Assembly: GCA_016189025.1 (NCBI GenBank)
Contig: JACPGS010000029.1
Location: forward strand, 15,911-79,910
Length of the DNA: 64,000 nt
Origin: Candidatus Magasanikiibacteriota bacterium
GTDB taxonomy: Bacteria > Patescibacteriota > Patescibacteriia > Magasanikbacterales > GWA2-37-8
Direction: 5' to 3'
Of the stretch, positions 2,021-49,517 are shown in pieces. Every line of letters starts with the position of its first letter. Position 1 is the stretch's first letter. The notes below the pieces were generated by a model that saw only the letters and a list, made by a program, of their open reading frames with translations, had not been told where the DNA came from and did no database searches. Made by a program: the position numbers and the translations under genes.

Positions 2021-3163
2021 CTACTCTGCTCGTTCTATGTATGCTTTATAATAGCGATCCAAGGAGTATCTTTTTAGGCTAGAATTTTGTTGATATGCTT
2101 GCAGCAATTCTTTTTCGAATGTAGGAGTAAGTAAATCAATTCTTCCCATGAATACCCGCTTAGTCTCAGTTGGCTTAGGAGAAATCTTAAGGGGTAGTAA
2201 TTCATTTGTTTTTTGTTCTGGCACAATCCAAAAGATGCGTAGACCAGGATGTTTAAAGTAGCTTTGTTCCCAGGTAGCAAGCATAGCTTTAGCTTCTTTT
2301 TTATATAATCCTCCATCCATAAGCGCTCGTTCAAAGATAGCAAAGTCTGCCTTAGCGGGCGATTGAACGCCGAAATTAATTTTTTGCTCAGTGCCATTTT
2401 TCATTTCGCCATTCCACCAGATATACTCAGATCCATCTGTTTTCTTTTCGTAGACGAAGACCTGCGACAATGTATGTGGGCCATTATTTTTGATCACTAG
2501 TTCGTTGTCATTGGTAAATTTAGTTTCCACAGGAATGTCGAAATTAGCAACACCACGATAGAAAATGAATTTTTCCACCTCTCTCTTATGTGATTTAATC
2601 AGGTTGGCATCCGTCACTCGCGGACTGGTCCAAATTTTCGTTTCTTCTTCCTCTGGAGGCGTTAGTTTTTGGGTGGAATTAGGAGGTAATATGCGCACCT
2701 TCCATTTCATCCCTCCCTTATATGGTTTGGTAAAATCCCAATTGTCGTGCATTTTGTTGCCACTGGTATTTTGCGGGTACCATTGACTAATTATCCCTTG
2801 TGGAAAATCCACCTGCACTGTGGCATTTTGGGCTTTCTTGCTATAGAAATAAATGACAGGCGTTTCCATTTTTACTGTAACATTTTTTGGTTCGTTGGTA
2901 GGTGAAATGTCGAATCCTTTCGCGTTGTAAACTGCCTCTGCGCGTTTTGTAAAATCACCATGCTGATAGGTAAAGCGTGGCAATTGCTCCTCGTCGAAAT
3001 AGAGGCCAGAGAGGCGTGTGCCGTCGGTCGCGTGTAGCGTTGTAAACGTGCCCCACTCATGTACCACCATACCTTTAGTGGTGGCAGCAGCACTAGCTTG
3101 AATCATGGCATAACCAACTCCGGCTAACAAAATAAGGCCAAAGATAAGGAATTTAACTTTCAT
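2021..3163 (-). CDS. secreted hypothetical protein with N-terminal signal peptide
   Basis: 380 aa; MKVKFLIFGLILLAGVGYA signal peptide; AT-rich (about 40% GC) compared with neighbours. Confidence 0.55.
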   Translation of the reverse strand: MKVKFLIFGLILLAGVGYAMIQASAAATTKGMVVHEWGTFTTLHATDGTRLSGLYFDEEQLPRFTYQHGDFTKRAEAVYNAKGFDISPTNEPKNVTVKMETPVIYFYSKKAQNATVQVDFPQGIISQWYPQNTSGNKMHDNWDFTKPYKGGMKWKVRILPPNSTQKLTPPEEEETKIWTSPRVTDANLIKSHKREVEKFIFYRGVANFDIPVETKFTNDNELVIKNNGPHTLSQVFVYEKKTDGSEYIWWNGEMKNGTEQKINFGVQSPAKADFAIFERALMDGGLYKKEAKAMLATWEQSYFKHPGLRIFWIVPEQKTNELLPLKISPKPTETKRVFMGRIDLLTPTFEKELLQAYQQNSSLKRYSLDRYYKAYIERAE

Positions 3164-3407
3164 ACATTTATTGTTAAATTTGAATTAACCGCATATTCAC
3201 ATTATCACAATCTAGATTGATTTTCAAGTGACAGAAAGGAGCGAAAAAATACTTGCTGGCTGCCGAAAGCAGACAGCCCCCTCTTACAAAAAAAAGAATC
3301 AATTCGCCCCTCCTTATTAAAAATCCGAAAAGCGGAGCGGCAAAAAGGGAATGGTAAAAATGTATTTCGCCTAACTAGTTTTATGATTCTTTTACAGTCT
3401 TATTATA

Positions 3408-8275: not shown

Positions 8276-8285
8276 ATTGTAAGAC

Positions 8286-8464
8286 TGTAGAAGAATGCTA
8301 ACTTTATCAGTATCCGCCTGGTCGCTATCGCTATTGCTAAGTTTAACCTGGTTGGTCGCGGCAGACACTCTTTGGGTGCTCCCCCGACTTTAGATCGGGG
8401 TGCGCGCCCAAAGACACTCGTCTGCCGCACCCTGATGCTAACTAGTTTTTCCCATTCTTCTACA
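8286..8464 (+). mobile_element. MITE-like repeat copy 1 (terminal inverted repeats tgtagaagaat/attcttctaca, internal long hairpin 8358..8428)
   Basis: About 88% identical to 45560..45739; 11-bp terminal inverted repeats; fills the whole intergenic space between the VKOR stop and the methyltransferase start. Confidence 0.65.
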
Positions 8465-8473
8465 ACCTCGTTG

Positions 8474-8944
8474 TTATAGGTTTTTTTCGTCTAGCGGCAG
8501 AGGCGTTTTTTTATTGTTGGCAGCGGATTTTTTGAAGTAGTAGAGAATCTGTATACCTAATACGAACAGTAGGGTAGAAGTAGCGGCGGAAACCAGGCAA
8601 TAGAGGCAATACGCGCCGATGACGAAAGCCTGGAGATAAAAAAACCAGAGGGTGGCGAGGAATCCCAAAACTGTTAGGCGAGCGAGCCAGCGCAGAATTA
8701 CTTCGCGACGGGTGTCCAGATAAGCCACGGCGCCCAAGAAGACGGCGAGATAATAGAGCGCTCCGAGGAGCGCCACCGGAATCTGATAGATCGTAGCGTA
8801 GCGGCTGGTGGTAACTACCTCGCAGCCCGCTAAGATTGAACAAGTCGGCGGCTCTCCTTGGTAGTGTTTAAGGGTAAGGTAACTGGCATCAACAAAACCC
8901 ACCAGACTGATTACCAGAAGGGCAAGGGCAAGCGGGCGAAGCAT
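8474..8944 (-). CDS. vitamin K epoxide reductase (VKOR) family protein
   Basis: 156 aa membrane protein with CSILAGC and CLYC motifs; adjacent DsbA-like gene. Confidence 0.7.
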   Translation of the reverse strand: MLRPLALALLVISLVGFVDASYLTLKHYQGEPPTCSILAGCEVVTTSRYATIYQIPVALLGALYYLAVFLGAVAYLDTRREVILRWLARLTVLGFLATLWFFYLQAFVIGAYCLYCLVSAATSTLLFVLGIQILYYFKKSAANNKKTPLPLDEKNL

Positions 8945-9694: not shown

Positions 9695-10342
9695 TTAGAT
9701 TTTGGTTAGCTGTTTTACTTCTTGGATAAAGAATCGTTTTACTGCCGGCCAAGAAATTTTGGTAAACATCTTGGGCATTGCTTGGGCGTCAGCTTCGGTA
9801 AAATAGGTGAGCGATTTATACAGATGATAGGGGTCGTAAGATACACCGGAGAATTGTTTCTGCAAAAAATTTAGCAACTGTTTCAAGGCGATTTGTTCTC
9901 GTTGCAAACAAAGATATAAATCGAGGAAATCCTTTTTGGTATTGCGTCCGGTAATCGCGCCGAGCTTCATCAGGGCAATATCGAGGGGGGTGGCCAAACG
10001 AATCCAGCCCCGGAAGCGAACCGGTTGCTGCCGGAGAGGATAGGGGAAAGTAATGAAGCTTACTTTCACGCCCGCCAGGATGCCTTCTACGGTGTTGGCC
10101 TCTTGATTAGTTAATTCAAAACGAGCCGTCTGTTTTAGTTGTTTTAGGAGCGGCGGGGCGGCAATATTTTTCGCGGTAAAAAAGTCCAAGTCCACCGATT
10201 GCCGGTGACCATAGTGCAGGGCGAGCGCCGTGCCGCCGGCCAAATAAAAATGCTGTAGCCAGCGTTTTCTGCTTAATTTGTTTAACAGACTAGCGGTGGC
10301 GGGGGCGAGCGTGCGGGCAAACATAGTTAGGCGATCTGCCAA
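9695..10342 (-). CDS. nucleotidyltransferase AbiEii/AbiGii toxin family protein
   Basis: AGGTALALHYGHRQSVDLDFF, the DUF1814/AbiEii N-terminal motif. Confidence 0.6.
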   Translation of the reverse strand: MADRLTMFARTLAPATASLLNKLSRKRWLQHFYLAGGTALALHYGHRQSVDLDFFTAKNIAAPPLLKQLKQTARFELTNQEANTVEGILAGVKVSFITFPYPLRQQPVRFRGWIRLATPLDIALMKLGAITGRNTKKDFLDLYLCLQREQIALKQLLNFLQKQFSGVSYDPYHLYKSLTYFTEADAQAMPKMFTKISWPAVKRFFIQEVKQLTKI

Positions 10343-30128: not shown

Positions 30129-30749
30129 ATGAAATATAGAGAAATACTCATCAGTCAGCTCAAATCTTTGCCTTATTTTAGCAAAGAAACGGTCGTATTG
30201 CTTAGCAAACAGTACGATCTGAAGCCCGCTACAGTTGATTCCTACATCAGCCGCTCTTTGGCGCGCAAAGATTTTATTGCCTTTAAAAATGGATTGTATG
30301 TTACGGCTGATTTTTATTACCAGAACGCCGGAGATATCTCGTACACATTTTATTTGGCCAATATAATGTGTCCGCCTTCGTACGTAAGCTCCTGGTCAGC
30401 TCTGCAGTACTATGAACTCGCCACCGAGGCCATTGGCACGGTAACGTCGGTAACGGCCAAAATTACCAGGATCCATAACAATCGGGCCGGGAGTTTTTCC
30501 TATCAGTTTATTAAAAAAAATTTATTTTCCGATTTTACCCTGATCCGGGGGAAGTTCGATTTTTTTATTGCCACGCCCGCTAAAGCGCTGTTTGATCTTA
30601 TCTATTTTAAAACTCACGCGTTCCGCGGCATCCGCGACATCGCCGCCGTAGATGGGATGATTGACAGTTTGCGCATTGATATTGCCGAAATGGAAACAAA
30701 AGAGCGCGATGCCTTTTATACAAAAGTAAAAAAATATTTGAGCATATGA
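30129..30749 (+). CDS. AbiEi-family antitoxin-like protein (type IV TA)
   Basis: 206 aa, N-terminal wHTH-like AbiEi_4 pattern (…IAFKNGLYVT…); overlaps the downstream AbiEii gene by 4 nt; about 38% GC. Confidence 0.55.
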   Translation: MKYREILISQLKSLPYFSKETVVLLSKQYDLKPATVDSYISRSLARKDFIAFKNGLYVTADFYYQNAGDISYTFYLANIMCPPSYVSSWSALQYYELATEAIGTVTSVTAKITRIHNNRAGSFSYQFIKKNLFSDFTLIRGKFDFFIATPAKALFDLIYFKTHAFRGIRDIAAVDGMIDSLRIDIAEMETKERDAFYTKVKKYLSI

Positions 30750-32029
30750 CCGCGACGAATCAGCTTTTTATTGCGCTTAAAACTAAGCTGGACAGTCTGT
30801 CGGCCTATGGTCCGGTGGATGCCGCAGTTAAGCGCAATATTCTGAAAGAAGAATTGCAGTATTATGTTTTGAATTTCCTCTACCACCATTCCGATTATAG
30901 TCAGTGGATTATGTACGGCGGTTCGGCCCTGCGGATTTGCCACGGGCTAAACAGGATGTCGGTAGATTTGGATTTTGAAATTCCGCAGCCGTGCGACGAC
31001 GCGTTTTTGCAGACGCTCGCCAACAGATTGTTGGACTATTTTAAAAATACTTATGCGGTGGAATCAGATTTTTTAACGATTAAAATTACCCGTCGGCGCG
31101 GGTTGACGCTTAAATTTATTGTCGGCGGGGTATTTGATACCGGTCATCCTTCCCCGCAGATACATGTTAAAATTGATCTGAATCATTTTGTGTCTAAAAA
31201 GCTGGTAATTGAGCGAATTCCTATCAATCACGACCAGCTGGCTTTTGTCATTACCACTTACAATATGTCGGCGCTGATGGCCAGTAAAATGGCGGCCATT
31301 TTTTCGCGGTCAAAGCGCGGCGTGGATAAAGAAATTTATGATGAAAAAGGCCGGGATATTTATGACTTGTTATGGTATATGGAAAAAAGAATTATACCCG
31401 ACTTAGATTATTTGAAAGAGAAAGTCCCAGAGATTGCCGATTTCAGGATAATGTTTGACCGGTTGACTGTAAAAATGAATACGGTAAGCGAAAAAAACCT
31501 GCGCGACGATTTAACGCCGCTGTTTGTGGAGCAGTCTTTTATTCAGAATTGGTTAATGAGCTGGCGCAGCAACTTTTTACGGTTAGTAAGGTCTTACGAC
31601 ATTAGAACGATCATAAAATTAGAAAAAATAAGCATCGGTAAAGAATTTCGTGCCGATAATTTTTTCTTTCATTTTATATACGCCACAGATAATGGACGCT
31701 TAACCACTATTAGTTGCTCGATTAGTGATTATTGGTTTTCCTTTCGCGAAGGCGACCTGACCGATTTAATCGCTCCGGTGAATGAAGAAATATTATCGCT
31801 GGTGGAGCACGTGTCCCAGGTGCAGATGAATGACAGAACCAAACAGTACATTGCTTTATTCTATAAAAAAGCAGAGGAATATCTTAAAAAAACGCACAAC
31901 GTTATTTTGGGTGATCGGCTTACCACCAAAACAATTCGGATGACTGCCGATAAGCTGAACCAGGGGGAACAAATAGTATTGAATAAATCGGCCTTACTTT
32001 CGTGCGAGCTGGAGGATTTGTTAAAGTAA
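30746..32029 (+). CDS. nucleotidyltransferase AbiEii/AbiGii toxin family protein with about 150-aa C-terminal extension
   Basis: YGGSALRICHGLNRMSVDLDF N-terminal NTase motif; 427 aa versus the usual 300 or so. Confidence 0.7.
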   Translation: MTATNQLFIALKTKLDSLSAYGPVDAAVKRNILKEELQYYVLNFLYHHSDYSQWIMYGGSALRICHGLNRMSVDLDFEIPQPCDDAFLQTLANRLLDYFKNTYAVESDFLTIKITRRRGLTLKFIVGGVFDTGHPSPQIHVKIDLNHFVSKKLVIERIPINHDQLAFVITTYNMSALMASKMAAIFSRSKRGVDKEIYDEKGRDIYDLLWYMEKRIIPDLDYLKEKVPEIADFRIMFDRLTVKMNTVSEKNLRDDLTPLFVEQSFIQNWLMSWRSNFLRLVRSYDIRTIIKLEKISIGKEFRADNFFFHFIYATDNGRLTTISCSISDYWFSFREGDLTDLIAPVNEEILSLVEHVSQVQMNDRTKQYIALFYKKAEEYLKKTHNVILGDRLTTKTIRMTADKLNQGEQIVLNKSALLSCELEDLLK

Positions 32030-32035
32030 ATTATT

Positions 32036-32551
32036 ATGCAGCGCATCCTCGGCATTGATCCCGGCTTTGGGCGGATGGGCTATGGGGTGATAGAGAAAAA
32101 AGATAATGACTGGCGAGCGGTGGCATACGGTTGTCTGGAAACGTCGGTAAAAAAATCCTTCGTTGAGCGCCTGGCCGAAGTGCATGCCGCCGTCGGCAAA
32201 CTTATTAAAGAATACCAGCCCGGGCGCCTGGCCGTGGAGGAATTGTTTTTTTTCAAAAACGCCAAGACTGCCATGGCGGTGGCGCAGGCGCGAGGGGTGA
32301 TCATTTTGACAGCAGTAGAAAACGGCTTGCCGGTGGACGAGTTTACTCCGTTACAGGTAAAACAAGCCATGACCGGCTATGGCCGGGCCGAGAAGAGGCA
32401 GCTGCAGAAGCTAGTGGCGCTGCTCCTCGGCATTACAGGCAAGATAAAATCCGACGATGCCGCCGATGCCCTGGCCGTGGCGCTCACCGCGGGGCAGAGC
32501 TTATGGGCAAAAAATTATCAGGATATTGGAACAAACGAAAAAAAGTGCTAA
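32036..32551 (+). CDS. ruvC: crossover junction endodeoxyribonuclease RuvC
   Basis: ILGIDPGFGRMGYGVI…, acidic catalytic residues, 171 aa. Confidence 0.9.
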   Translation: MQRILGIDPGFGRMGYGVIEKKDNDWRAVAYGCLETSVKKSFVERLAEVHAAVGKLIKEYQPGRLAVEELFFFKNAKTAMAVAQARGVIILTAVENGLPVDEFTPLQVKQAMTGYGRAEKRQLQKLVALLLGITGKIKSDDAADALAVALTAGQSLWAKNYQDIGTNEKKC

Positions 32552-32562
32552 GATATTCTGGT

Positions 32563-33276
32563 ATGCAATCTACCCTTGCCCTCTTCCGCCGCCTCTACAA
32601 CACGCTGCCACCTTTAATCCCCGAGGCGACTAAACAAAAAATGGCGCACGCAGTGCAGCACCTGGAAGCCGACCCCACGGTGTCGCTTGCCGAAGTAGAA
32701 GACACGATGATTGCGTTTGGCCAGGAAGTATGGCCCTGGAGCCAGGCTTACCGCGAATTTCTGGCGCTGGCCGAGGCGCGGGTAGGCGAACATTTTTTAC
32801 TGCCTAAATTGTCGCCGGCGCTGCAGCATAAATATCATGAATTCCGGTTGTACGGCGGCACGCTCCGCGATTTACATTCGGGTCGTCCCGCCGAGTGGTT
32901 TACGGCCGAGGAACGGGGGGAGCTGTGCGGCGCGCTCGTTGCGGTGCAGCAGGAATTGCGCGAATATGTTAATCGCGCCCTGGTGGGGCTGGAGAAAACC
33001 CGGTATCTGCGCCGCGTTAATGAGTTTACGGAAATTCTTAAATCAATCCGCGGGCAGCTGCAGGCGCTGAACGTACTGGCGGCCTCCGAGCAGCAGCATC
33101 CGACCTTGGCGAGCGAAATCCGCGCCCAGGTGCGGGCGTTTGAGCTGGGGTTATGCTTGTTGGCGCCCGAGCCCGACCATGGCGCGGTCTGCCGCTCGGT
33201 GGATTTCTTTAACAGCCGTCGCGAACATCTGCAGCGCTTAACTACCTTGGGGGTGTTTGCCCCGGCGGGCAATTGA
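32563..33276 (+). CDS. hypothetical protein
   Basis: ORF track 32503..33276 trimmed to MQSTLALF to avoid overlap with ruvC. Confidence 0.4.
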   Translation: MQSTLALFRRLYNTLPPLIPEATKQKMAHAVQHLEADPTVSLAEVEDTMIAFGQEVWPWSQAYREFLALAEARVGEHFLLPKLSPALQHKYHEFRLYGGTLRDLHSGRPAEWFTAEERGELCGALVAVQQELREYVNRALVGLEKTRYLRRVNEFTEILKSIRGQLQALNVLAASEQQHPTLASEIRAQVRAFELGLCLLAPEPDHGAVCRSVDFFNSRREHLQRLTTLGVFAPAGN

Positions 33277-33321
33277 CGATTCACCACCGGCGGTATATCT
33301 TAATCAGCATTATAATGAGAC

Positions 33322-33492
33322 TATAGAAGAATAGAACAACCAGCCAGCATCAGGTCGCGACCGATGAGTTCTCTTTTGGCGCGCAACTTTAGTGAGCACC
33401 AAAAGAGTGTCGGTCGCGACCAACCAGGCAGTTTTCCGCAATAGCGATAGCGACCAGGTTAAAAATGTGGTATAGCCAGCATTCTTTTCCAG
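33322..33492 (-). mobile_element. MITE-like repeat copy 3 (degenerate, inverted relative to copies 1 and 2)
   Basis: Matches the reverse complement of copy 1 in blocks (tagaagaat, agcatcagg, caatagcgatagcgaccagg, agcattctt) with a reorganised central hairpin; overlaps the predicted start of the arginine decarboxylase gene. Confidence 0.55.
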
Positions 33493-34892
33493 TCTTAATT
33501 TATTACTCAACAGCATCAGTTGTGTCCAAAAAGAACTTCAAAAAATTCTGGAAACTGGGCCGCCGGGATTTTAGCACCGAACATTTTGACATTAACCCCG
33601 ACGGCGAGCTCGTCATCCGCGAAGGCAACTATCAGTATAATGTTTTGGATTTGGTGCGCAAATTCGGCTCGCCCACTGAAGTTTTTTTGCCTTTTGTGCT
33701 GGAGGAGCGCCTGGAGCGCCTGTTCGACGTGGCCGAGCAAGAGATGAAGCGCCATCATTATCGCGGCAAGTTTTTTTATCACTACCCGATGAAGGTGAAC
33801 CAGAACCGGGAATTCGTACTGCCCTTAGTTTCCGAAGGGGCGCACTTGGAAGTGGGTTCACCCAACGAGCTGTGGCTGGTGAAAAAGCTTTGGGAGGGAG
33901 AAAATTTCCACGCTAAAATCCGGGTGCTCTGCAACGGCCCCAAAACGCCGCGCTACATTAACCTCATCACCGGCCTGCAATCCCAGGGGCTGGCGATTGT
34001 GCCGATTATTGAAGATGCCGAAGAATTGCGTTTGTTAAAAGATTTTCGCGGCGAACTGGGCGTGCGCATTAATCTGCAGTCAAAAGTGCAGTCGCACTGG
34101 GACAAAAAGATTGATCGCTTCGGCTTGTTGGAGGAGGAAATTTTAAGTTTGGGAAAAATTCGCAACCTCAAAATTCTCCATTATCACATTGGCTCACAGG
34201 TAGAACGCGAGAACGACCTATTGGCGGTGCTGAAAGAAGCGTTGCGCGCTTATGTCAAGGTGCGCGCGCAAAACCCTTCGCTTGATACCCTGGACGTCGG
34301 CGGGGGGTTTGCCGTGCCCTACGAGAAAAAGCCGATGTATACCGTGGAGTCGGTGTTGCGGCGAATGTTTTCGGCGCTGGCAAACGCCTCGGCCGCGGCC
34401 GGCATCCCGCACCCCAATTTGATTGTGGAATGGGGCCGGCACCTGGCCGCGCCAGCGCAAATTTCGGTTTTTAAAGTAGTGGCCACCAAGGTAATCCCTA
34501 AAGGCATTGCTAAGTTCTGGTACGTGATTGATGGGAGTTTCATGACGGATTTGCTGGATACCTGGTCGATCCATCAAAAGTGGCATATTGTTCCGGTTGG
34601 CCACGCGGGCGCGGAAAAACGCCACCGCGTTTGGCTGGGCGGTTTGACCTGCGATTCCGACGACAAATACGCTGATGCCGAAGGATATGTGCTCTTGCCC
34701 CGGATAGAGGATTTGGGGCCAGGCGAGGATTTGTACTTGGCGATTTTTGACACCGGCGCCTACCAGGATTCCTTTGCCATGCATCATTGCCTGATTTCTA
34801 GTCCGGCCAAGATTGTGCTGCAGAATGGCCTGGTTACCATGGCGCGCAAGCGCGAATCGCCGGAAGAGATCGGCAAGATGTTTGGGTGGTAG
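33465..34892 (+). CDS. speA: arginine decarboxylase (Orn/DAP/Arg decarboxylase family 2, SpeA-like); start uncertain
   Basis: YPMKVNQN PLP-lysine motif, LEVGSPNEL block; first 28 nt lie inside repeat copy 3. Confidence 0.7.
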   Translation: MWYSQHSFPVLIYYSTASVVSKKNFKKFWKLGRRDFSTEHFDINPDGELVIREGNYQYNVLDLVRKFGSPTEVFLPFVLEERLERLFDVAEQEMKRHHYRGKFFYHYPMKVNQNREFVLPLVSEGAHLEVGSPNELWLVKKLWEGENFHAKIRVLCNGPKTPRYINLITGLQSQGLAIVPIIEDAEELRLLKDFRGELGVRINLQSKVQSHWDKKIDRFGLLEEEILSLGKIRNLKILHYHIGSQVERENDLLAVLKEALRAYVKVRAQNPSLDTLDVGGGFAVPYEKKPMYTVESVLRRMFSALANASAAAGIPHPNLIVEWGRHLAAPAQISVFKVVATKVIPKGIAKFWYVIDGSFMTDLLDTWSIHQKWHIVPVGHAGAEKRHRVWLGGLTCDSDDKYADAEGYVLLPRIEDLGPGEDLYLAIFDTGAYQDSFAMHHCLISSPAKIVLQNGLVTMARKRESPEEIGKMFGW

Positions 34893-34954
34893 AGGCGCAG
34901 CTGGTAGCTGGTAGGAAGTAGCTGGTAGGCGAACGGCAAAAATTTGTATGCTAT

Positions 34955-35839
34955 ATGATTTTAACTTTAAAGAATAACCCGGGGGCGGCTCTTTTTGGGC
35001 TGGCGTTGAGTTTGATTTTGGCTTCAACTGCCGCAGCGCAAACAAATGTTTCAGGTAGTGGAGTAGGCAGGTCTAAAGTACCGGTGAGCCAGGCCGGTGA
35101 AACGTGCTATACCAATACAAAAGCCAGTGCTGTTAAGAACAGCCGGATATCGGTATTAACCTACATGCAAAGTGCGGCGAAAAATTCTAAAGACGTACAG
35201 CCGTATTTGGAATCTTGGCGAAAAATGTTTTTATTAAAAAACCGCATGAGCAATACATATTTTAAAGAACATGTTATTTACCCAACCTTTGTGAGGAAAG
35301 AACAGAAAAAAGTGAAGGGGGCGGATTATGTGGTGTTTAGAGTATTTTTACAGCTTAAGTTTGGCGACTATTATATAAGCGAAGTGCACCCGAAAGATGA
35401 CAGGATTTCATTATTAACAGGTACCGGCAAAGAGAAACGGAATGAGTTTGTTAACAGCAACGAATTTTTGGTCCGGATGGTTAAAGGCAAACCGCTGCCC
35501 GCCGCGCTTGTCCTGCAGAGGTATAAAGCGCGCTATATTGCCAAGACTCTTAAACCCGGCCATAAAAATTATGATGATGTAATCGCTAATGTTGGTAGTA
35601 TCAGAATTAATGGTAAATTGCCAGCGGTGTTGGCAGGTTGTGGAATGGCCATCGAGAGCGCTCTGGATTGCCCCGGTATACAGTATTTGCCTGCTTTAAC
35701 TTATGACGCACGGAATAATAAAGTAGCGTTGTTAGGGAGCGGAGAAAATGGTGATCAATGCTATTCGTCAGAAGTTAATTTAATCACGGGCAAGGCAGCG
35801 TGCCAGGGGCCGTTTGCTTGTATGAAAATTGGTTTGTAA
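34955..35839 (+). CDS. secreted hypothetical protein (signal peptide, Cys-rich C-terminus)
   Basis: 294 aa, AT-rich, interrupts the polyamine operon. Confidence 0.5.
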   Translation: MILTLKNNPGAALFGLALSLILASTAAAQTNVSGSGVGRSKVPVSQAGETCYTNTKASAVKNSRISVLTYMQSAAKNSKDVQPYLESWRKMFLLKNRMSNTYFKEHVIYPTFVRKEQKKVKGADYVVFRVFLQLKFGDYYISEVHPKDDRISLLTGTGKEKRNEFVNSNEFLVRMVKGKPLPAALVLQRYKARYIAKTLKPGHKNYDDVIANVGSIRINGKLPAVLAGCGMAIESALDCPGIQYLPALTYDARNNKVALLGSGENGDQCYSSEVNLITGKAACQGPFACMKIGL

Positions 35840-35850
35840 GCAAGTAGGTT

Positions 35851-36963
35851 TTGCAATTGTTTATGCAAAATTCTAAATTTGCCAAACTTTCTCCCAGCCT
35901 GCGCCAGCTTATTGTATTGGAAGCAAAGCAGTCTAGAACAGGGGCCATTAGTCCGTATGTATCGGCGAGCAAAACTCCGGTATCGGCCTATGCCCAGGAA
36001 ACGCTCCAGCACTGCAATGCCGTGGCCACGCTCCAGGCTGCCTTATGGCTCAAAAACCATTTAGACCACGGCGGCAAGCTGGTGGTAACGCTCGCCGGCG
36101 CTTTGAGTTCATTTCAAATTGGCGTGATGCTGGCGGAACTTATCCGTAAAAATAAGGTGCATTTAATTTCCGCTACGGCTGCCAATCACGAAGAATCGTA
36201 TTATCGCTACGTGGCGCATTCCCATTACGCTTACATTCCACGCTATACCGAGCTTACCCCGGCGCAAGAGGCGGAACTGCGCGATGCGGGCTTGCGCCGG
36301 ATTACCGACACGTTTTTGCCGGAAGACCAGAGTGTGCGCATTATGGAACCGCACCTGCTCCGGATGTGGAAGCGGGCGCAAAAGAAGGGCGAACGGTATT
36401 TTCCGCACGAATACTTCGGGCGGTTGTTTGAGCAGAAATTAATTAAGCCTGACCTCCAGGCTAACCCCTACGACTGCTGGGCCTATGCTGCCTGGCAGAA
36501 GAAAGTGCCGATTGTCGTGCCCGGGTTTGAAGACTCCACTATGGGCAATATCTTTGCCAGTTATTGCTACGCCGGTAAATATCGGCAGGATAAAGGCCCG
36601 CGGCTTAATCCCCAGATTATGAAAACCGGGCTGGAGTATTTTGGTTTCCTCTACGACTGGTACCTGGATACTGCCAAAAAATCATCCATTGCTTTTTTGC
36701 AACTAGGCGGCGGCATTGCGGCGGATTTTCCTATCTGTGTAGTCCCTTCGTTGAAACATGACCTGCGCCTTAAAAACGTGCGCCCCTGGGCCGGGTTTAT
36801 AGAAATCGGCTCCAGCCCCATGTCCTACGGCTCTTACTCCGGCGCCGGCGGCAAAGAAAAAATCACCTGGGATAAACTAGACCCTGCGAGCTATTACCAA
36901 ATTATTCAGAGCGACGTAACCGTAGTGTTCCCCTGGATCGCGGCGGTGTTATTGGGGTTATAA
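35851..36963 (+). CDS. deoxyhypusine synthase-like protein (probable homospermidine synthase)
   Basis: 370 aa, DHS family blocks (…TLAGALSSFQIGVMLAELIRKNKVHLISATAANHEES…). Confidence 0.65.
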   Translation: MQLFMQNSKFAKLSPSLRQLIVLEAKQSRTGAISPYVSASKTPVSAYAQETLQHCNAVATLQAALWLKNHLDHGGKLVVTLAGALSSFQIGVMLAELIRKNKVHLISATAANHEESYYRYVAHSHYAYIPRYTELTPAQEAELRDAGLRRITDTFLPEDQSVRIMEPHLLRMWKRAQKKGERYFPHEYFGRLFEQKLIKPDLQANPYDCWAYAAWQKKVPIVVPGFEDSTMGNIFASYCYAGKYRQDKGPRLNPQIMKTGLEYFGFLYDWYLDTAKKSSIAFLQLGGGIAADFPICVVPSLKHDLRLKNVRPWAGFIEIGSSPMSYGSYSGAGGKEKITWDKLDPASYYQIIQSDVTVVFPWIAAVLLGL

Positions 36964-36968
36964 TTATT

Positions 36969-37376
36969 ATGCTTTTAGTAAAAACTAAAATTGGGCCGAG
37001 TAAAATTCATGGTATCGGATTGTTTGCGGATGAATTTATTCCTAAAGGCAAACTGATGTGGCGGGTGGAGCATGATTTTGATCTTGAGTTTGAGGCCAGT
37101 CAGCTGGTCAATTTATCCGCTCCGTCCCGAGCGCAGTTTTTGAAATATTCTTACCGACATCCGAAGACGGGGAAGTACGTTCTGCCTTTTGACGATGCTC
37201 GTTTTTTTAATCACGCTGATCATCCGAACATTAACAGCGTCTATCCCAACGGTAATAACGGCGAATGTGATGTAGGTATTGCGGCGCAAGATATTATGGC
37301 TGGCGAAGAATTGACGTGCAATTATCGGGAGTTTGATGCCGATAGCGTTGTAAAATTAGAGTTTGAAGCCGGTTAA
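36969..37376 (+). CDS. SET domain protein (putative lysine methyltransferase)
   Basis: GIGLFA…, FFNHADHPN, GEELTCNY SET motifs; 135 aa. Confidence 0.75.
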   Translation: MLLVKTKIGPSKIHGIGLFADEFIPKGKLMWRVEHDFDLEFEASQLVNLSAPSRAQFLKYSYRHPKTGKYVLPFDDARFFNHADHPNINSVYPNGNNGECDVGIAAQDIMAGEELTCNYREFDADSVVKLEFEAG

Positions 37377-37378
37377 TT

Positions 37379-38455
37379 ATGAGCGGTGTTGTTAAAAATT
37401 CTAAATTGCAAAAAATCTCCTCTTACGATCCCGGCGGTATTTACACCAATGGTCAATTATTCGGCTTACCGTTTACCAACCAGGAATCCGAAGTAGTGAT
37501 TGTGCCGATGCCGTGGGAAGTTACCACGTCGTACCGCGACGGCACGGCGCAGGGGCCGCGGACAGTGCTCAAAGCATCGTATCAGGTAGACTTGTACGAC
37601 CTGGATGCTCCCGAAGCTTGGGAATTAGGTATCGGGATTCAGCCGATTTCCTCTGCTTGGAGCCGGCAGAATACTGTATTGCGGCGCCAAGCAAAAAAAT
37701 ATCTGGATTATCTGTATAATGGCGGCGACACCAGAGTAAAGTGGGTGCGCCAGACGCTGGCGGAAATTAACCAAGCCGGGGCCGAGCTAAATGGCTGGAT
37801 GAAAAAGGAAACTGCCAAATTGCTAAAACAAAATAAATTAGTGGGGGTATTAGGCGGGGAGCATAGCGTATCGCTTGGATTTATGCAGGCGCTGGCGGAG
37901 CAATATCCCCGGTATTCCATATTGCACCTTGATGCCCACGCTGACTATCGCGCGGCTTATGAAGGGTTTGAATTTTCTCACGCCTCTATCCAGTATAACG
38001 CGGGGAAGATTAAGCAGGTGGACCGGCAGGTGCTGGTCGGCATCCGCGATTATTCGCACGCCGAGGCGCAGCGCATCGCCGAATCGCACGGCCGAATTGC
38101 GGCGTTTCCGGATAGAGAAATAAAGCGCGGCGCCTACGCGGGAAAAACGTGGCAAGCGCAATGCGGCGAAATTATTAAGCCGCTCTCTAAAGAAGTTTAT
38201 ATCAGTTTTGATATTGATATCCTAGACCCCTCGCTGTGTCCGCATACCGGCACGCCGGTGCCGGGCGGCCTGGAGTTTGAACAGGTATTTTATCTGATTG
38301 AAGCCGTCATCAAGAGCGGGCGTAAAATTATCGGTTTCGATCTGTGCGAGGTGGCGCCAGGCGTTGGCAATAACGGCGAATGGGATGCCATCGTCGGGGC
38401 GCGGGTGCTGTATCGCCTGGCTATTTTAATGGCTAAATCACAGCGGCGAATATAG
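37379..38455 (+). CDS. speB: agmatinase / arginase-family ureohydrolase
   Basis: HLDAHADY, SFDIDILDP manganese-binding motifs; adjacent to speA-like gene. Confidence 0.75.
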   Translation: MSGVVKNSKLQKISSYDPGGIYTNGQLFGLPFTNQESEVVIVPMPWEVTTSYRDGTAQGPRTVLKASYQVDLYDLDAPEAWELGIGIQPISSAWSRQNTVLRRQAKKYLDYLYNGGDTRVKWVRQTLAEINQAGAELNGWMKKETAKLLKQNKLVGVLGGEHSVSLGFMQALAEQYPRYSILHLDAHADYRAAYEGFEFSHASIQYNAGKIKQVDRQVLVGIRDYSHAEAQRIAESHGRIAAFPDREIKRGAYAGKTWQAQCGEIIKPLSKEVYISFDIDILDPSLCPHTGTPVPGGLEFEQVFYLIEAVIKSGRKIIGFDLCEVAPGVGNNGEWDAIVGARVLYRLAILMAKSQRRI

Positions 38456-44600: not shown

Positions 44601-45545
44601 TCATTTTAATTTGTTTAGATAATCAATCGCCGTGAGCGCGGCGGTTACTCCCTGGCCGGCGGCAATGGCGATTTGTTTGTAGGGAATATTGGTAACGTCG
44701 CCGGCGGCGAAAATTCCCGGGCAGCTGGTGCGGCCGAGCAGGTCCACTTCAATTTCGCCCTGGGCATTTTTTTTGACGCAGTCAATAAACTGCGAATTGG
44801 GAATCATGCCGACGTGCACCATCACCCCCTGCACGGCAATTTGCTGGACTTGGCCGGCCGCATCTTGATACTTCAGCCCCGTTACCACCTTGTCACCCAC
44901 AATTTCCGTGGTGTTGGCCTCGTAAATAATTTCCACATTTTTTGCCGCTTTTACTTTTTCAATCAAAATCGCCTCGCCCTTGGGGAAGCCGCCCTGGGTA
45001 GCCGGGGTATTGGGGTATTTAGTGAGTAAATATACTTTACTGGCGATTTCCATCATCATCAGCGCCGATTCCAGGGCGCTGTTGCCGGCGCCGATGGTGG
45101 CGGTAACCTTGCCGGTAAATAACGGCCCGTCGCAGACAGTGCAGGAGGTAACGCCGTGGTGCAGTAGCGGTTTTTCTCCCGGTACGCCTAACTCCCGAGG
45201 GTGAATGCCGGTGCCAACAATCACGGTTTTAGTCTGGTAAGTTTTGATTTCGCCGGCGGAATTTTTGGCGGTAACGACGTGATAGTTTTTTTCCGGTTTA
45301 ACTGAAATTACCTCGGCGCCTTCGTCAGCCGCGACGCCATAGGATTTCAAGTGTTCCGCGAATTTTTCCGCCAGGTCAAACCCTTGAATATCAATAATGC
45401 CCGGCCAGTTGTTGACCGCGCCGGAGAGCGCCACTTCGCCGCCCAGGTCTTTGGCAATTATCAGGAAGTTCAGTTTGCGCCGGGCGGCGTAAATACCCGC
45501 AGCCGAGCCGACCGCCGCGCCGCCGATGACAATTAAATCGTACAT
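44601..45545 (-). CDS. trxB: thioredoxin-disulfide reductase
   Basis: GGAAVGSAAGIYAARR FAD motif, SCTVCDG redox-active disulfide. Confidence 0.9.
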   Translation of the reverse strand: MYDLIVIGGAAVGSAAGIYAARRKLNFLIIAKDLGGEVALSGAVNNWPGIIDIQGFDLAEKFAEHLKSYGVAADEGAEVISVKPEKNYHVVTAKNSAGEIKTYQTKTVIVGTGIHPRELGVPGEKPLLHHGVTSCTVCDGPLFTGKVTATIGAGNSALESALMMMEIASKVYLLTKYPNTPATQGGFPKGEAILIEKVKAAKNVEIIYEANTTEIVGDKVVTGLKYQDAAGQVQQIAVQGVMVHVGMIPNSQFIDCVKKNAQGEIEVDLLGRTSCPGIFAAGDVTNIPYKQIAIAAGQGVTAALTAIDYLNKLK

Positions 45546-45559
45546 AATTAAGCTGAGAT

Positions 45560-45739
45560 TGTAGAAGAATGTTGACGATAATCGTTATCTGCCTAGTCGC
45601 TATCGCTATTGCTAAAATTAGCCTGGTTAGTCGCGGCAGACACTCTTTGGGTGCTCCCCCGACTTTAGATCGGGGTGCGCGCCCAAAGATACTCGTCTGC
45701 CGCTCCCTAATGCTGACTGGTATTTTTAATTCTTCTACA
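45560..45739 (+). mobile_element. MITE-like repeat copy 2 (terminal inverted repeats, hairpin 45633..45703)
   Basis: Near-identical to 8286..8464; occupies the rpe-trxB intergenic region and ends 14 nt before the trxB start codon. Confidence 0.65.
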
Positions 45740-45742
45740 GTC

Positions 45743-46381
45743 TCAAGCTACTAACGTCTGCAGTACTGCGTATTCTTGGCGGGGATTATGCGCTTGTAGT
45801 AAGCCGTGCCCCACATTGGCAATCTCCACTCCCAAATCCCGCAGTTCCCTTATATTACTCCTATCCACCGCCCCGTCAACCGCGCACCGGGGTCGGCCCG
45901 GGCGGGCAGTAAAAGCAGCGATTTTGGCTTTAACTTCCGGGTGGAAGGCCTGGCCCTGGGCGCCGGGGGCAACGGTCATGAACTGTAAAACTTTGATTGA
46001 TATTGATGATAAAAAAGGGTCGGCGGCGGAAAGCGGCGTTTTTGGATTTAATACCAGTCCCGCTTCCCAGCCGGCGGTTTGAGCGGCAGCGACGCCCGCC
46101 GCCGGATTATTGGCTTCAACCTGCACCAGGGCGCGGAACACGCCGCGCACCCCTTGCCAGCGTTTAATTTCCGCCGCGGGGTCGGCCACCATCAGGTGCA
46201 GTTCGGAGCGATCAGGGAGCGGCAGTTCGTTCAAGCGTTCGCGCTCGGGAAAAGTTCGGTGCGGCACAAACACGCCATCCATCACATCCAGGTGGAGATA
46301 AGGGGCGAGACCCCCCACTCGTTCTAGGGCGGCAGTAAACTCATCAAAAGTCAGCGCTAAAATAGCTGGGATAATCAGCAT
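45743..46381 (-). CDS. rpe: ribulose-phosphate 3-epimerase
   Basis: HLDVMDGVFVP and VAPGAQGQAF blocks. Confidence 0.8.
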   Translation of the reverse strand: MLIIPAILALTFDEFTAALERVGGLAPYLHLDVMDGVFVPHRTFPERERLNELPLPDRSELHLMVADPAAEIKRWQGVRGVFRALVQVEANNPAAGVAAAQTAGWEAGLVLNPKTPLSAADPFLSSISIKVLQFMTVAPGAQGQAFHPEVKAKIAAFTARPGRPRCAVDGAVDRSNIRELRDLGVEIANVGHGLLQAHNPRQEYAVLQTLVA

Positions 46382-47117: not shown

Positions 47118-47588
47118 ATGAGCGATCTCCGCGCGTTGGCACACCTGGAAGAGCAGCTTGGCGAGGCCCGTTGGCAAGCTCTGATCAGCTCGGGTAACAC
47201 CGGGAAGATCAAGGAGTTCCTGGACACCCTCCCCGAGTGCGCCATCCCCACCGAGATGATCCTCGGCGGGGTCGCCTACGACATCCTCTCGTTCCTCCGG
47301 GGTGAGCAGTCGGTGAAGGGCGACCTCATGGTCGAGCGGGCCAAGGAGATGGGCGCTCACCAGGGTAAGAAGGAGCGCGAGCATCTCCTTGCTTACCAGG
47401 ATGAGATCCCCGTCGCGCTCCGCGGCAAGGTCGTCTTCGTCTTCACCGACGACCGGCGCCCGGGCGGCCCCGAGTACGTCTGCTGCGTCTGCTGGGACGA
47501 CGACCGCTGGGTCTCGCGCTGGGACTGGCTCGACGGCGGCTTCTTCGGCCGCTGCCGGGTTCTCCGCCGCAAGTCCGCGCAGCCCTAG
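47118..47588 (+). CDS. DGR target (variable) protein, C-terminal variable repeat
   Basis: 156 aa, about 65% GC; last 39 codons form a VR matching the downstream TR except at TR adenines. Confidence 0.7.
   Translation: MSDLRALAHLEEQLGEARWQALISSGNTGKIKEFLDTLPECAIPTEMILGGVAYDILSFLRGEQSVKGDLMVERAKEMGAHQGKKEREHLLAYQDEIPVALRGKVVFVFTDDRRPGGPEYVCCVCWDDDRWVSRWDWLDGGFFGRCRVLRRKSAQP
47454..47570 (+). repeat. DGR variable repeat (VR)
   Basis: 117 bp aligned to 47956..48072; 20 mismatches, all at TR adenine positions; identical GC-rich 3' block ccgggttctccgccgc. Confidence 0.8.
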
Positions 47589-47660
47589 GATCCTTGGAAT
47601 CTCAGCACTGTCACAAACGGTGTCGGGGTCACTCGGTCCCTTCGGCTCGCGCCGCAACAA

Positions 47661-47695
47661 GCCCGCCCTAAACACTAGGGCGGGCGTATCATTTT
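47661..47695 (+). terminator. hairpin plus T-run downstream of VR (terminator / DGR-associated stem-loop)
   Basis: gcccgccc-taaacacta-gggcgggc followed by gtatcattttt. Confidence 0.55.
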
Positions 47696-47955
47696 TGTGG
47701 TATACTGTACCCTGGATAGTAAACGAAACAGTCCACGGTGGCGGTCGCTCAAGGCGACCAAAGCTTTGGGCGGTTGAACTCTGGATACACCAACCGGCCA
47801 GAATAGTTTGGCGCATGTCGCCAGCTAGCGTGCCATTGGTATACCCTAAAAATGATGATACTTGGTGCAAAATGCTGGTGAGATCAAGTCTCCAAATAAA
47901 ATACAGCCCTGAGAGTATTCAAAGGGTAGTGATACAGATGGCAATTTGCATAAAG

Positions 47956-48072
47956 CGGCACCCGGACGACCCCGAGAACGTCTACTACGTCTACTGGAAC
48001 GACGACCGCTGGGTCACGAACTGGAACTGGCTCGACAACGACTTCAACGGCAACTACCGGGTTCTCCGCCGC
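47956..48072 (+). repeat. DGR template repeat (TR)
   Basis: Non-coding copy of VR, enriched in AAC codons in the VR frame (N-N-N-N corresponding to D/G/C in VR). Confidence 0.8.
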
Positions 48073-48113
48073 CAGTCTTCTCATTCTCCCGTCCATGTGG
48101 CGGGAGTTTCATT

Positions 48114-48536
48114 TTATGACGATTCGAGTTTCCGTATCCACCCCCCAAGCATAATACCGGCCTCAGTCAACTTTCCTGCTAGTTGTGAGTATTGGTTTGT
48201 CTCAAGCCCCTTGGCCTCCCACAAAATTGTTATGAAAAATTTAAGGTGATCAAGTTTTTGCGCAAGTTGGGTAAGTACCGCTAATTTCTGTTCACGTTTA
48301 GCATACTGCGCTGTCAATGTCACAGCAACCAAATCCGTAAATAAAATATCTATTTTTACGCCCAGCGTATAGCGCGTGAGGCGAGGAAGGTGTTGTAAAA
48401 AATTATGCCACAACAAATAACTCTCTTTGAGCAAAGACAAAATGGGAATTTCAGTACTGCCCTGCCCGTGAGCAAATTTGCCGTGGGGGGGGGGGGGCTT
48501 GATAGCCGCGTCGGTGGAAAAATTCAATTGGCTCAT
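48114..48536 (-). CDS. accessory variability determinant (Avd)-like four-helix-bundle protein; N-terminus uncertain
   Basis: LPRLTRYTLGVKIDI…LKFFITILWEAKGL…TEAGIMLGGWIRK parallels Bordetella phage Avd (IPRKHG…LRFWLRFLAGIQ…AEVGRILGSWI). Confidence 0.65.
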   Translation of the reverse strand: MSQLNFSTDAAIKPPPPHGKFAHGQGSTEIPILSLLKESYLLWHNFLQHLPRLTRYTLGVKIDILFTDLVAVTLTAQYAKREQKLAVLTQLAQKLDHLKFFITILWEAKGLETNQYSQLAGKLTEAGIMLGGWIRKLESS

Positions 48537-49517
48537 AGTTACGAAAATATTATTTGCTTAGAAAATTTATGCTTAGCGTGGGAAGAATTTATCATCGGCA
48601 AGAAAAAGAAACAAGATGTTATAGATTTTGGTCGTAGCTTGATGGACAATATTGTAGAGCTTCACGAGGCGTTAGTCAATCGCACTTATCGCCACGGCAG
48701 TTACGAAAGTTTTTACATCACCGACCCCAAACGGCGGCATATCCACAAGGCCAGCATGCGCGACCGCTTGCTTCATCACGCAGTGTATAGGATTTTGTAT
48801 CCATTTTTTGACCGTACGTTTATTGGTGACTCTTTTTCTTGCCGAGATAACAAAGGCGTACATAAAGCGCTTAATCGTTTTCGGCGTCTAGCCTGGCGTG
48901 CCAGCCGCAACCATACGCGCAATGTCTGGGTGTTTAAGTGCGACATCCGCAAGTTTTTTGCGCGCGTTGACCACCAGATTTTGTTAGCGATTTTGCATAC
49001 CTATATTCCGGATACGGATATTTTACGGCTGCTGCAAAATATTATTGAGAGCTACCATACCGAAAGCAATCCTGGCATTGGCCTACCGCTTGGTAACCTC
49101 ACCTCACAGCTTTTCGCCAATGTGTATCTAAACCGGCTTGATCACTGGGCCAAGCACGCACTTAAGTCGCATTATTATGTGCGTTATGCCGATGATTTTG
49201 TTTTGCTTTCTCGCGACCGGTTCCAGTTAGCAGAAGCCCTACCAAAAATTCAGGAATTTTTGCAGACTCAACTAAAACTATCCCTGCACCCGGACAAAAT
49301 ATTATTAAAGACAGTAGCCTCGGGCATGGATTTTTTAGGCTGGGTACATTTTTCCAGCCATTGTTTGCTTCGTACCAAAACTAAACAGAGAATGTTACAG
49401 AATATCAGAAACTCAATCAGCGAGGCGGGTCTGACATCATATCTCGGCCTAATCAGCCATGGCAACACCGCCGGATTGCGCGAACGGGTGATGGAGGAGT
49501 ATTGGCTGTGGAATTAA
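48405..49517 (+). CDS. DGR-type reverse transcriptase; true start probably near 48528
   Basis: YENIICLENLCLAWEEFIIGKKKK N-terminal RT0 block, TSQLFANVYLNRLDH, YVRYADDFVLL (YADD) catalytic motif. Confidence 0.85.
   Translation: MPQQITLFEQRQNGNFSTALPVSKFAVGGGGLDSRVGGKIQLAHSYENIICLENLCLAWEEFIIGKKKKQDVIDFGRSLMDNIVELHEALVNRTYRHGSYESFYITDPKRRHIHKASMRDRLLHHAVYRILYPFFDRTFIGDSFSCRDNKGVHKALNRFRRLAWRASRNHTRNVWVFKCDIRKFFARVDHQILLAILHTYIPDTDILRLLQNIIESYHTESNPGIGLPLGNLTSQLFANVYLNRLDHWAKHALKSHYYVRYADDFVLLSRDRFQLAEALPKIQEFLQTQLKLSLHPDKILLKTVASGMDFLGWVHFSSHCLLRTKTKQRMLQNIRNSISEAGLTSYLGLISHGNTAGLRERVMEEYWLWN
48485..48497. repeat. 13-nt poly-G homopolymer at the avd/RT 5' junction
   Basis: Seen directly (ccgt G13 ctt). 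Confidence 0.9.

Follow-up and report, generated by a model that had tools for sequence, protein, structure and literature searches.

In a 64-kb stretch of DNA (the window, by which we mean the whole stretch analysed), the predicted open reading frame of an arginine decarboxylase (ADC) begins inside a palindromic sequence that resembles two other regions of the window. The locus raises the question of what this sequence is, where the gene behind it really starts, and why a long hairpin within it has stayed paired while its letters have changed. A sequence-only reading had called the region a third, inverted and degenerate copy of a MITE, with compensatory stem changes that point to a functional fold. 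The observation is confirmed by our analysis and the interpretation supported, with the exception of the step from conserved pairing to function, which is unproven.

Host genome and gene context

The ADC protein has a 100% identical counterpart at NCBI, from a Candidatus Magasanikbacteria bacterium MAG (Patescibacteria/CPR), and the sequence, including the repeat copy discussed here, is unchanged in two independent Logan assemblies from groundwater runs. The region 33322-33492 in which the repeat had been recognised lies in a spacer of 245 nt, with an unannotated gene (32503-33276) upstream and ADC downstream. Many genes of the window are spaced by 2 to 11 nt or overlap, the regions preceding their starts are AT-rich, and a Shine-Dalgarno-like motif is found upstream of only ~6 of the 53 predicted genes. 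ADC belongs to a polyamine cluster (33522-38455) that also comprises, on the same strand, a 294-aa gene without a Pfam match and deoxyhypusine-synthase-like, SET-domain and arginase-family (agmatinase-like) genes; genes similar to those of the cluster are present in a different order on a JGI contig (L125).

Several other features of the window were recorded. There are two AbiEii-type toxin genes, at 9695-10342 (-) and 30746-32029 (+), the second of which lies in the stretch of lowest GC content in the window (0.42, 30-32 kb) and adjoins a 206-aa gene without a Pfam match. A diversity-generating retroelement occupies 47118-49517, with its reverse transcriptase gene at 48405-49517 (Pfam RVT_1), a template repeat at 47956-48077 and a variable repeat at 47454-47575, at the C-terminal end of the open reading frame 47118-47588; 20 of the 21 mismatches between the two repeats fall at template-repeat adenines.

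Corrected start of the arginine decarboxylase gene

The gene-list start of ADC, an ATG at 33465, falls within the element as had been noted, and the proposal that translation truly begins downstream at a codon other than ATG is borne out by the NCBI gene model and by N-terminal alignment of homologues, both of which place the start at GTG 33522. The corrected coding sequence (33522-34892 (+)) specifies 456 aa with 100% identity to the NCBI protein (P0001), and the 12 homologues compared (56-78% identity) start no more than a few residues away from this GTG. The 19 codons of the N-terminal extension (33465-33521 (+)) encode residues that are absent from P0001 and have nothing in common with the 12 homologues, and judged by these alignments ATG 33465 is an artefact, an accident of the element sequence. 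A minus-strand open reading frame of 68 aa (33310-33516) that lies almost wholly in the repeat copy is likewise an artefact of the element sequence. The annotation should be amended accordingly, with ADC starting at GTG 33522 and both the 68-aa and the 475-aa reading frames that run into the element removed as spurious.

A third, inverted copy of the repeat

Alignments and repeat pairs place the element upstream of ADC (copy 3) at 33316-33497 (-), a length of 182 nt, and the two Logan assemblies have it in identical sequence. The bounds first proposed, 33322-33492, were thus nearly right, the true span being slightly longer once the terminal repeats are included. All of the sequence blocks by which the region had been recognised as an inverted and degenerate copy are present in 33322-33492, and repeat pairs and end-to-end alignment agree with that recognition. 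Copy 3 is inverted in the window relative to copy 1 (8280-8470 (+), 191 nt) and copy 2 (45554-45745 (+), 192 nt), although the orientation to the flanking genes is the same in all three. Copies 1 and 2 are linked by a direct repeat of 164 nt at 88% (8306-8469 / 45581-45744), and the repeat search pairs 33394-33458 of copy 3 with 45592-45656 (65 nt, 85% complementary) and 33394-33428 with 8347-8381 (35 nt, 91%). The three full copies can be aligned from end to end and have one architecture in common. Compared with copy 1, copy 3 has 42 differences in 176 aligned positions (~24% divergence) and is without 11 nt at the hairpin tip. A 21-nt block of copy 3, GCAATAGCGATAGCGACCAGG (33438-33458 (+)), is identical to copy 1 and has one mismatch to copy 2, and three sites in the window carry the 20-mer CAATAGCGATAGCGACCAGG, at 8317-8336 (-), 33439-33458 (+) and, with one mismatch, 45592-45611 (-). 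In shuffled versions of the window the mean number of matches to this 20-mer was 0.01. The idea that copy 3 resembles copies 1 and 2 by chance or through low complexity has next to no probability given 76% identity from end to end, the 21-nt exact block against copy 1 and the fact that none of 100 shuffles reached the observed count of three; the similarity is clearly better than random.

The elements are bounded by terminal inverted repeats of 17 nt with the consensus TGAGACTGTAGAAGAAT ... ATTCTTCTACAGTCTCA and termini TG...CA, and in the consensus structure the terminal stem is paired in 93% of cells. The end motif has nine matches in the window against 0.76 expected, located where the copies, and a remnant described below, terminate. 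In copy 3 the gene-upstream repeat, TGAGACTATAGAAGAAT (33316-33332 (+)), has two mismatches to GACTGTAGAAGAATG and pairs with the degenerate gene-proximal repeat, ATTCTTTTCCAGTCTTA (33481-33497 (+)). With element boundaries that were chosen after seeing the data, target duplications of 3 bp are perfect in copy 1 (TTG, 8277-8279 and 8471-8473) and copy 2 (AGC, 45551-45553 and 45746-45748); the same ends can equally be read as repeats of 16 nt flanked by a 5-bp duplication, A-NNN-T. For copy 3 the duplication is ambiguous (TAA versus ATT, or TAAT if shifted by 1 nt), in keeping with the degenerate ends of this copy.

The census of the family in the 64-kb window comprises three full copies and one remnant, the right end of a fourth copy (3371-3402 (+), CTAACTAGTTTTATGATTCTTTTACAGTCTTA, 32 nt), which was located with an nhmmer profile and a terminal-motif search. 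We saw no left half of a MITE matching this remnant. The remnant is abutted by the right arm of a 23-nt inverted repeat (91%, 1879-1901 / 3347-3369) that brackets a gene (2021-3163 (-)) for a 380-aa protein with a signal-peptide-like start and no Pfam match, and this bracketed unit may be another insertion that split the MITE copy.

No reading frame is conserved between the copies, whose lengths range from 182 to 192 nt, and six-frame translation of the element gave no protein match among 5.8 billion. Small size without coding capacity, terminal repeats, several copies, target duplications that are free of mismatches in copies 1 and 2, presence in this genome with empty sites in relatives, and like ends elsewhere (the last two treated below) all identify the family as a MITE, as had been proposed. 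Copy 3 is best described as an old and probably immobile copy of this ~190-bp non-autonomous transposon.

Logan assemblies of five sequencing runs (L128-L132) all end inside copy 2 (45586-45612), three of them at exactly 45612, showing that the repeat breaks short-read assemblies of the host organism. Since the exact match shared by the copies of the window at 45612 is too short, other parts of the genome probably contain more copies that are nearly identical, or polymorphism.

The element also contains a 9-nt direct repeat, at columns 27-35 and 167-175 of the alignment of 8282-8469, 45556-45744 and 33317-33495, which covaries between copies: it reads AGTTAGCAT twice in copy 1, AGTCAGCAT and CGTCAACAT in copy 2 and AGCCAGCAT twice in copy 3. 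Because direct repeats cannot pair together, this covariation is not explained by mutual pairing; it might reflect binding sites near the termini or conversion of one end by the other.

Insertion sites and orientation

Copy 1 is inserted between the stop codon of a VKOR gene (8474-8476) and the start of a DOT1-like methyltransferase gene (8275), and removal of the element leaves TAA CAAT ATG, a gap of 4 nt. Copy 2 has a ribulose-phosphate epimerase gene upstream and a thioredoxin-reductase-like gene, starting at 45545, downstream; here removal of the element together with one duplication yields ...GCT TAA TT ATG, a gap of 2 nt between the epimerase stop and the next start. The terminal TCA of copy 2 (TGA on the gene strand, 45743-45745) serves as the epimerase stop codon, exactly in place of the old TAA, so that the epimerase protein is unchanged. 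An element with the same ends on a JGI metagenome contig (L007, see below) likewise provides the TGA stop of its upstream open reading frame (L007 650-652). Insertions of this family can therefore sit in gene junctions of 2 to 4 nt, in one case in the window supplying a stop codon.

Copy 3 occupies a spacer that measures ~60 nt with the element removed, and ends 24 nt upstream of the ADC GTG. A promoter-like site, TTGACG-17-TATCTT (33273-33301 (+)), overlaps the stop of the upstream gene and stands 15 nt upstream of copy 3; at the orthologous position a related genome (L014) has the stronger TTGACT-17-TATAAT (11 of 12 matches). Given this promoter-like site upstream of it, copy 3 most likely lies within an ADC 5' leader of ~210 nt and would probably be transcribed. 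The position of copies 1 and 2 within operon junctions of 2 to 4 nt points to co-transcription, and we infer from these placements that all copies would be transcribed as parts of host mRNAs in one orientation. Scans for promoters and terminators inside the element gave nothing conserved.

The sequence-only reading had noted that the same end of the element faces the adjacent gene start, and this holds for all three full copies and also for the remnant, although four of four elements in one orientation is expected by chance with P = 0.125. A place always just upstream of a start codon, in one orientation, and a very stable fold with covariation could also describe a structured cis-regulatory RNA or small RNA gene (riboswitch- or attenuator-like) that is not mobile and whose terminal repeats are simply a closing helix. 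We consider this highly unlikely, because the genes downstream of the three full copies are functionally unrelated (a DOT1-like methyltransferase, a thioredoxin-reductase-like enzyme and ADC), orthologous leaders are empty, target duplications are present and, in other contigs, these terminal repeats surround cores of unrelated sequence. Moreover, searches of Rfam gave no match at gathering thresholds or at E values up to 10, apart from miRNA- and CRISPR-model noise far below threshold, and the element has neither a U-run after the hairpin nor a conserved promoter or terminator. An intrinsic terminator was separately rejected, there being no U-run after the main hairpin on either strand.

Empty sites, related elements and the search for a transposase

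The site of copy 3 is empty in L014, which keeps both flanking genes (56% and 78% identity) with a spacer of 45 nt and no element. For copy 2, rpe and the trxB-like gene are separated by 42 nt in L134 and fused with each other in L133. These three genomes are other species rather than strains of the host. A further relative, L126, was discarded as an empty site for copy 2 on account of an extra gene at the rpe/trxB junction.

A scan for the terminal repeats only, which required an 11-nt core at both ends, was made in a collection of genome contigs and a collection of metagenome contigs and identified one real relative in each, both with perfect extended repeats around interiors unrelated to the window element. 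The first, in another CPR genome, a Candidatus Paceibacterota (L005), has a perfect 17-nt terminal repeat, TTAGGGTGTAGAAGAAT, sharing the core TGTAGAAGAAT with the window element, and the second, on the JGI contig L007, has exactly TGAGACTGTAGAAGAAT on both sides of its core. Their flanking triplets match at two of three positions (L007 GGG/GGA, L005 TAT/GAT), and both elements fold as rods. Shared ends around different cores are expected if one type of transposase mobilises several non-autonomous elements. Five other candidates (L004, L008-L011) have the terminal repeat without the extension and look like chance matches. The conserved 17-mer together with CCTGGTT had no match in the genome-contig and metagenome-contig collections, neither of which includes the source genome.

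No autonomous transposase with matching ends was found among the 53 predicted genes of the window scanned against Pfam. In IMG/VR viral contigs the 16-nt terminal repeat gave 110 single matches, attributable to chance only, and no transposase partner; two apparent terminal-repeat pairs there (L104 and L113) enclose phage genes rather than a transposase. An integron attC site, whose R''/R' core sites (RYYYAAC ... GTTRRRY) enclose an imperfect palindrome that separates promoterless cassettes, was also discounted, as the ends misfit these core sites and the copies are flanked by housekeeping genes with conserved synteny.

The internal palindrome is large and apparently constrained, and the terminal repeat contains a GTAG motif; these might be taken as marks of an element that moves as a single strand, either a REPIN/RAYT system or an IS200/IS605-derived palindrome whose DNA hairpin is recognised by the transposase. 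It is scarcely probable that the family is of this kind: terminal repeats and target duplications are present here, which those elements lack, the GTAG is placed 8 nt inside the end and not at a REP head, and no Y1 (HUH) transposase was detected by Pfam among the 53 predicted genes of the window.

A hairpin preserved by compensatory changes

The main internal hairpin of copy 3 (33353-33421 (+)) emerges from folds, consensus structure, pair counts and simulation. It has an outer stem of 12 bp (GGTCGCGACCGA, 33353-33364 / TCGGTCGCGACC, 33410-33421), which extends the stem gtcgcgaccga / tcggtcgcgac originally quoted, and an inner stem of 9 bp (ctcttttgg, 33371-33379 / ccaaaagag, 33399-33407); the apical stem of copies 1 and 2 is deleted. 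The consensus structure of the family is a rod, with the terminal repeats paired and the long internal hairpin inside. Every copy has a much more stable fold than its shuffled controls (z-scores of -5.5 to -8 on either strand), and as the two strands fold about equally well, folding energy does not separate RNA-level from DNA-level constraint.

The comparison of copy 3 with copy 1 shows differences at 8 of 46 alignable paired positions of the main hairpin, yet all 23 pairs are kept. Three pairs have undergone double compensatory changes (GC to AU, AU to CG and GC to UA), and the further changes include one C-G pair that became a U-G wobble and one wobble that became C-G. When eight substitutions were placed at random in a simulation, the probability of no broken pair was 2.5e-5 and that of at least three compensated pairs 5e-4. 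The claimed compensatory stem changes are thus real and far beyond chance, with the reservation that the three full copies represent two lineages and the covariation rests on one comparison. The palindrome does have the same architecture as in the other copies, as had been stated, but to call its sequence different was an overstatement, since it departs from theirs at only these 8 of 46 paired positions and in the 11-nt tip deletion. Divergence is 17% at paired positions versus 26% elsewhere, and shifting the register of pairing lowers the paired fraction from 97% to 38-51%. All one-sided changes in the main hairpin give G.U pairs when read on the gene-sense strand, where the opposite strand would have A.C. 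This hints at constraint at the level of RNA, but the bias is not significant, at 4 to 0 in this hairpin and 7 to 2 over all pairs.

The earlier reading took the compensatory conservation as pointing to a functional fold in RNA or DNA, which is plausible but short of proof, as hairpin-templated mutation can produce the same pattern. In such template switching one arm of a hairpin is copied from the other, so that a single event, or a small number of them, can yield several compensated pairs, lengthened stems and inverted loops (PMC8794818), and the corresponding alternative holds that the element is a MITE whose compensatory pattern arose by hairpin-templated repair or template switching in DNA replication and not by functional selection. 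Copy 3 shows all three of the footprints described in that work. Compensated pairs are close together (45/110 and 47/108), one-sided changes extend the outer end (GGTC/GACC) and the inner stem (CTC/GAG), and, with the elements read in the same orientation, the apical 7-mer ACTTTAG of copy 3 matches exactly the reverse complement of the loop CTAAAGT found in copies 1 and 2; the equal folding of both strands also counts in favour of this alternative. However, the arms have not simply been copied from each other, because an asymmetric internal loop (6 nt versus 2 nt) keeps its polarity, and the lower divergence of paired than of unpaired positions also speaks against this alternative. The loop 'inversion' is only two substitutions away from a pair of A-to-T changes and is weak evidence, and the mechanism is compatible with selection as well. 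We view template switching without selection as a serious but less probable account of the hairpin, and our preferred explanation of the kept pairing is selection on a self-contained fold. With three copies in two lineages, selection for the host and selection for the element cannot be separated.

A model for tolerance of the insertions

The explanation that we favour as a whole, and hold to be probable, is that a MITE copy lies in the ADC leader, that copies are tolerated when folded, and that selection for this tolerance keeps the hairpin. The RNA of the element would fold into a closed rod in which the terminal repeats pair and the long hairpin lies inside. Start regions in this genome are AT-rich, largely without Shine-Dalgarno motifs and presumably unstructured, and genes are packed 2-11 nt apart; an insertion of ~190 nt at such a junction might be tolerable only when folded on itself. 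The closed rod would both stop the element sequence from pairing with the start region of the downstream gene and bring the upstream stop and the downstream start spatially together. Copies with a decayed hairpin would be selected against and folding copies tolerated, and the hairpin would be preserved in this way. By analogy with Correia and ERIC elements, a secondary role as a hairpin for RNase processing or mRNA stabilisation is possible.

A bolder version of selection on the fold extends it to the terminal-repeat family across the CPR, which would have been shaped at the RNA level into a 'self-insulating' operon-junction module: a closed rod in the gene-sense RNA that supplies a TGA stop for the upstream gene, leaves the downstream start without a Shine-Dalgarno motif accessible and maybe provides an RNase processing site. 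We regard this extension as improbable; if true, the elements would be tolerated, even co-opted, punctuation in extremely compact genomes.

In the literature searched we found no described case of a MITE in CPR (Patescibacteria), and likewise nothing on the terminal-repeat sequence. The present family documents such elements in bacteria with tiny, densely packed genomes, in which mobile elements have been little described. The preserved hairpin can serve as a modest test of how selection on an RNA fold is to be told from hairpin-templated mutation. The element is otherwise of an ordinary kind, notable only for its still-perfect hairpin and the mis-called gene start, and will not surprise specialists in bacterial repeats.

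Comparison with known systems

Insertion sequences of the IS3 family have TG...CA termini and generate 3-bp target duplications. The ends of the window element are alike, although no OrfAB or DDE transposase with such ends was found, and we treat the IS3 family as a lead to the source of the element and not as an assignment.

REP and REPIN sequences are also intergenic hairpin-forming repeats, often located between convergent or co-directional genes, but REPINs lack terminal inverted repeats accompanied by target duplications and rely on a Y1 transposase, at variance with the present element on both counts. The ERIC (IRU) elements of enterobacteria are imperfect palindromes of ~127 bp in transcribed intergenic regions of operons, which fold in the mRNA and have an orientation-dependent effect on its stability. 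They differ from the present family in sequence, host range and ends, and are found in both orientations as opposed to one here (four of four, a small sample). The Correia (NEMIS) elements of Neisseria are bounded by terminal repeats, ~100-160 bp long, located next to genes and co-transcribed with them, as is predicted here; their paired terminal repeats form an RNA helix that is cleaved by RNase III in Neisseria. Their terminal repeats measure 26 bp, they duplicate TA, and they carry IHF sites and promoters directed outward, whereas the window element has 17-nt repeats and a 3-bp duplication, with no conserved promoter found and no sequence similarity to them.

Prokaryotic MITEs have been reviewed (PMC10969869; see also Delihas, PMC2229807, PMC3184786). 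The present family differs from typical MITEs in its host, a CPR bacterium, and in that no cognate insertion sequence was found among the window genes or in IMG/VR. In all other respects compared it resembles them, being ~180-190 bp in length, non-coding, bounded by terminal repeats and present in several copies at AT-rich intergenic targets, with short target duplications that become indistinct in older copies and an RNA for which a highly stable stem-loop is predicted.
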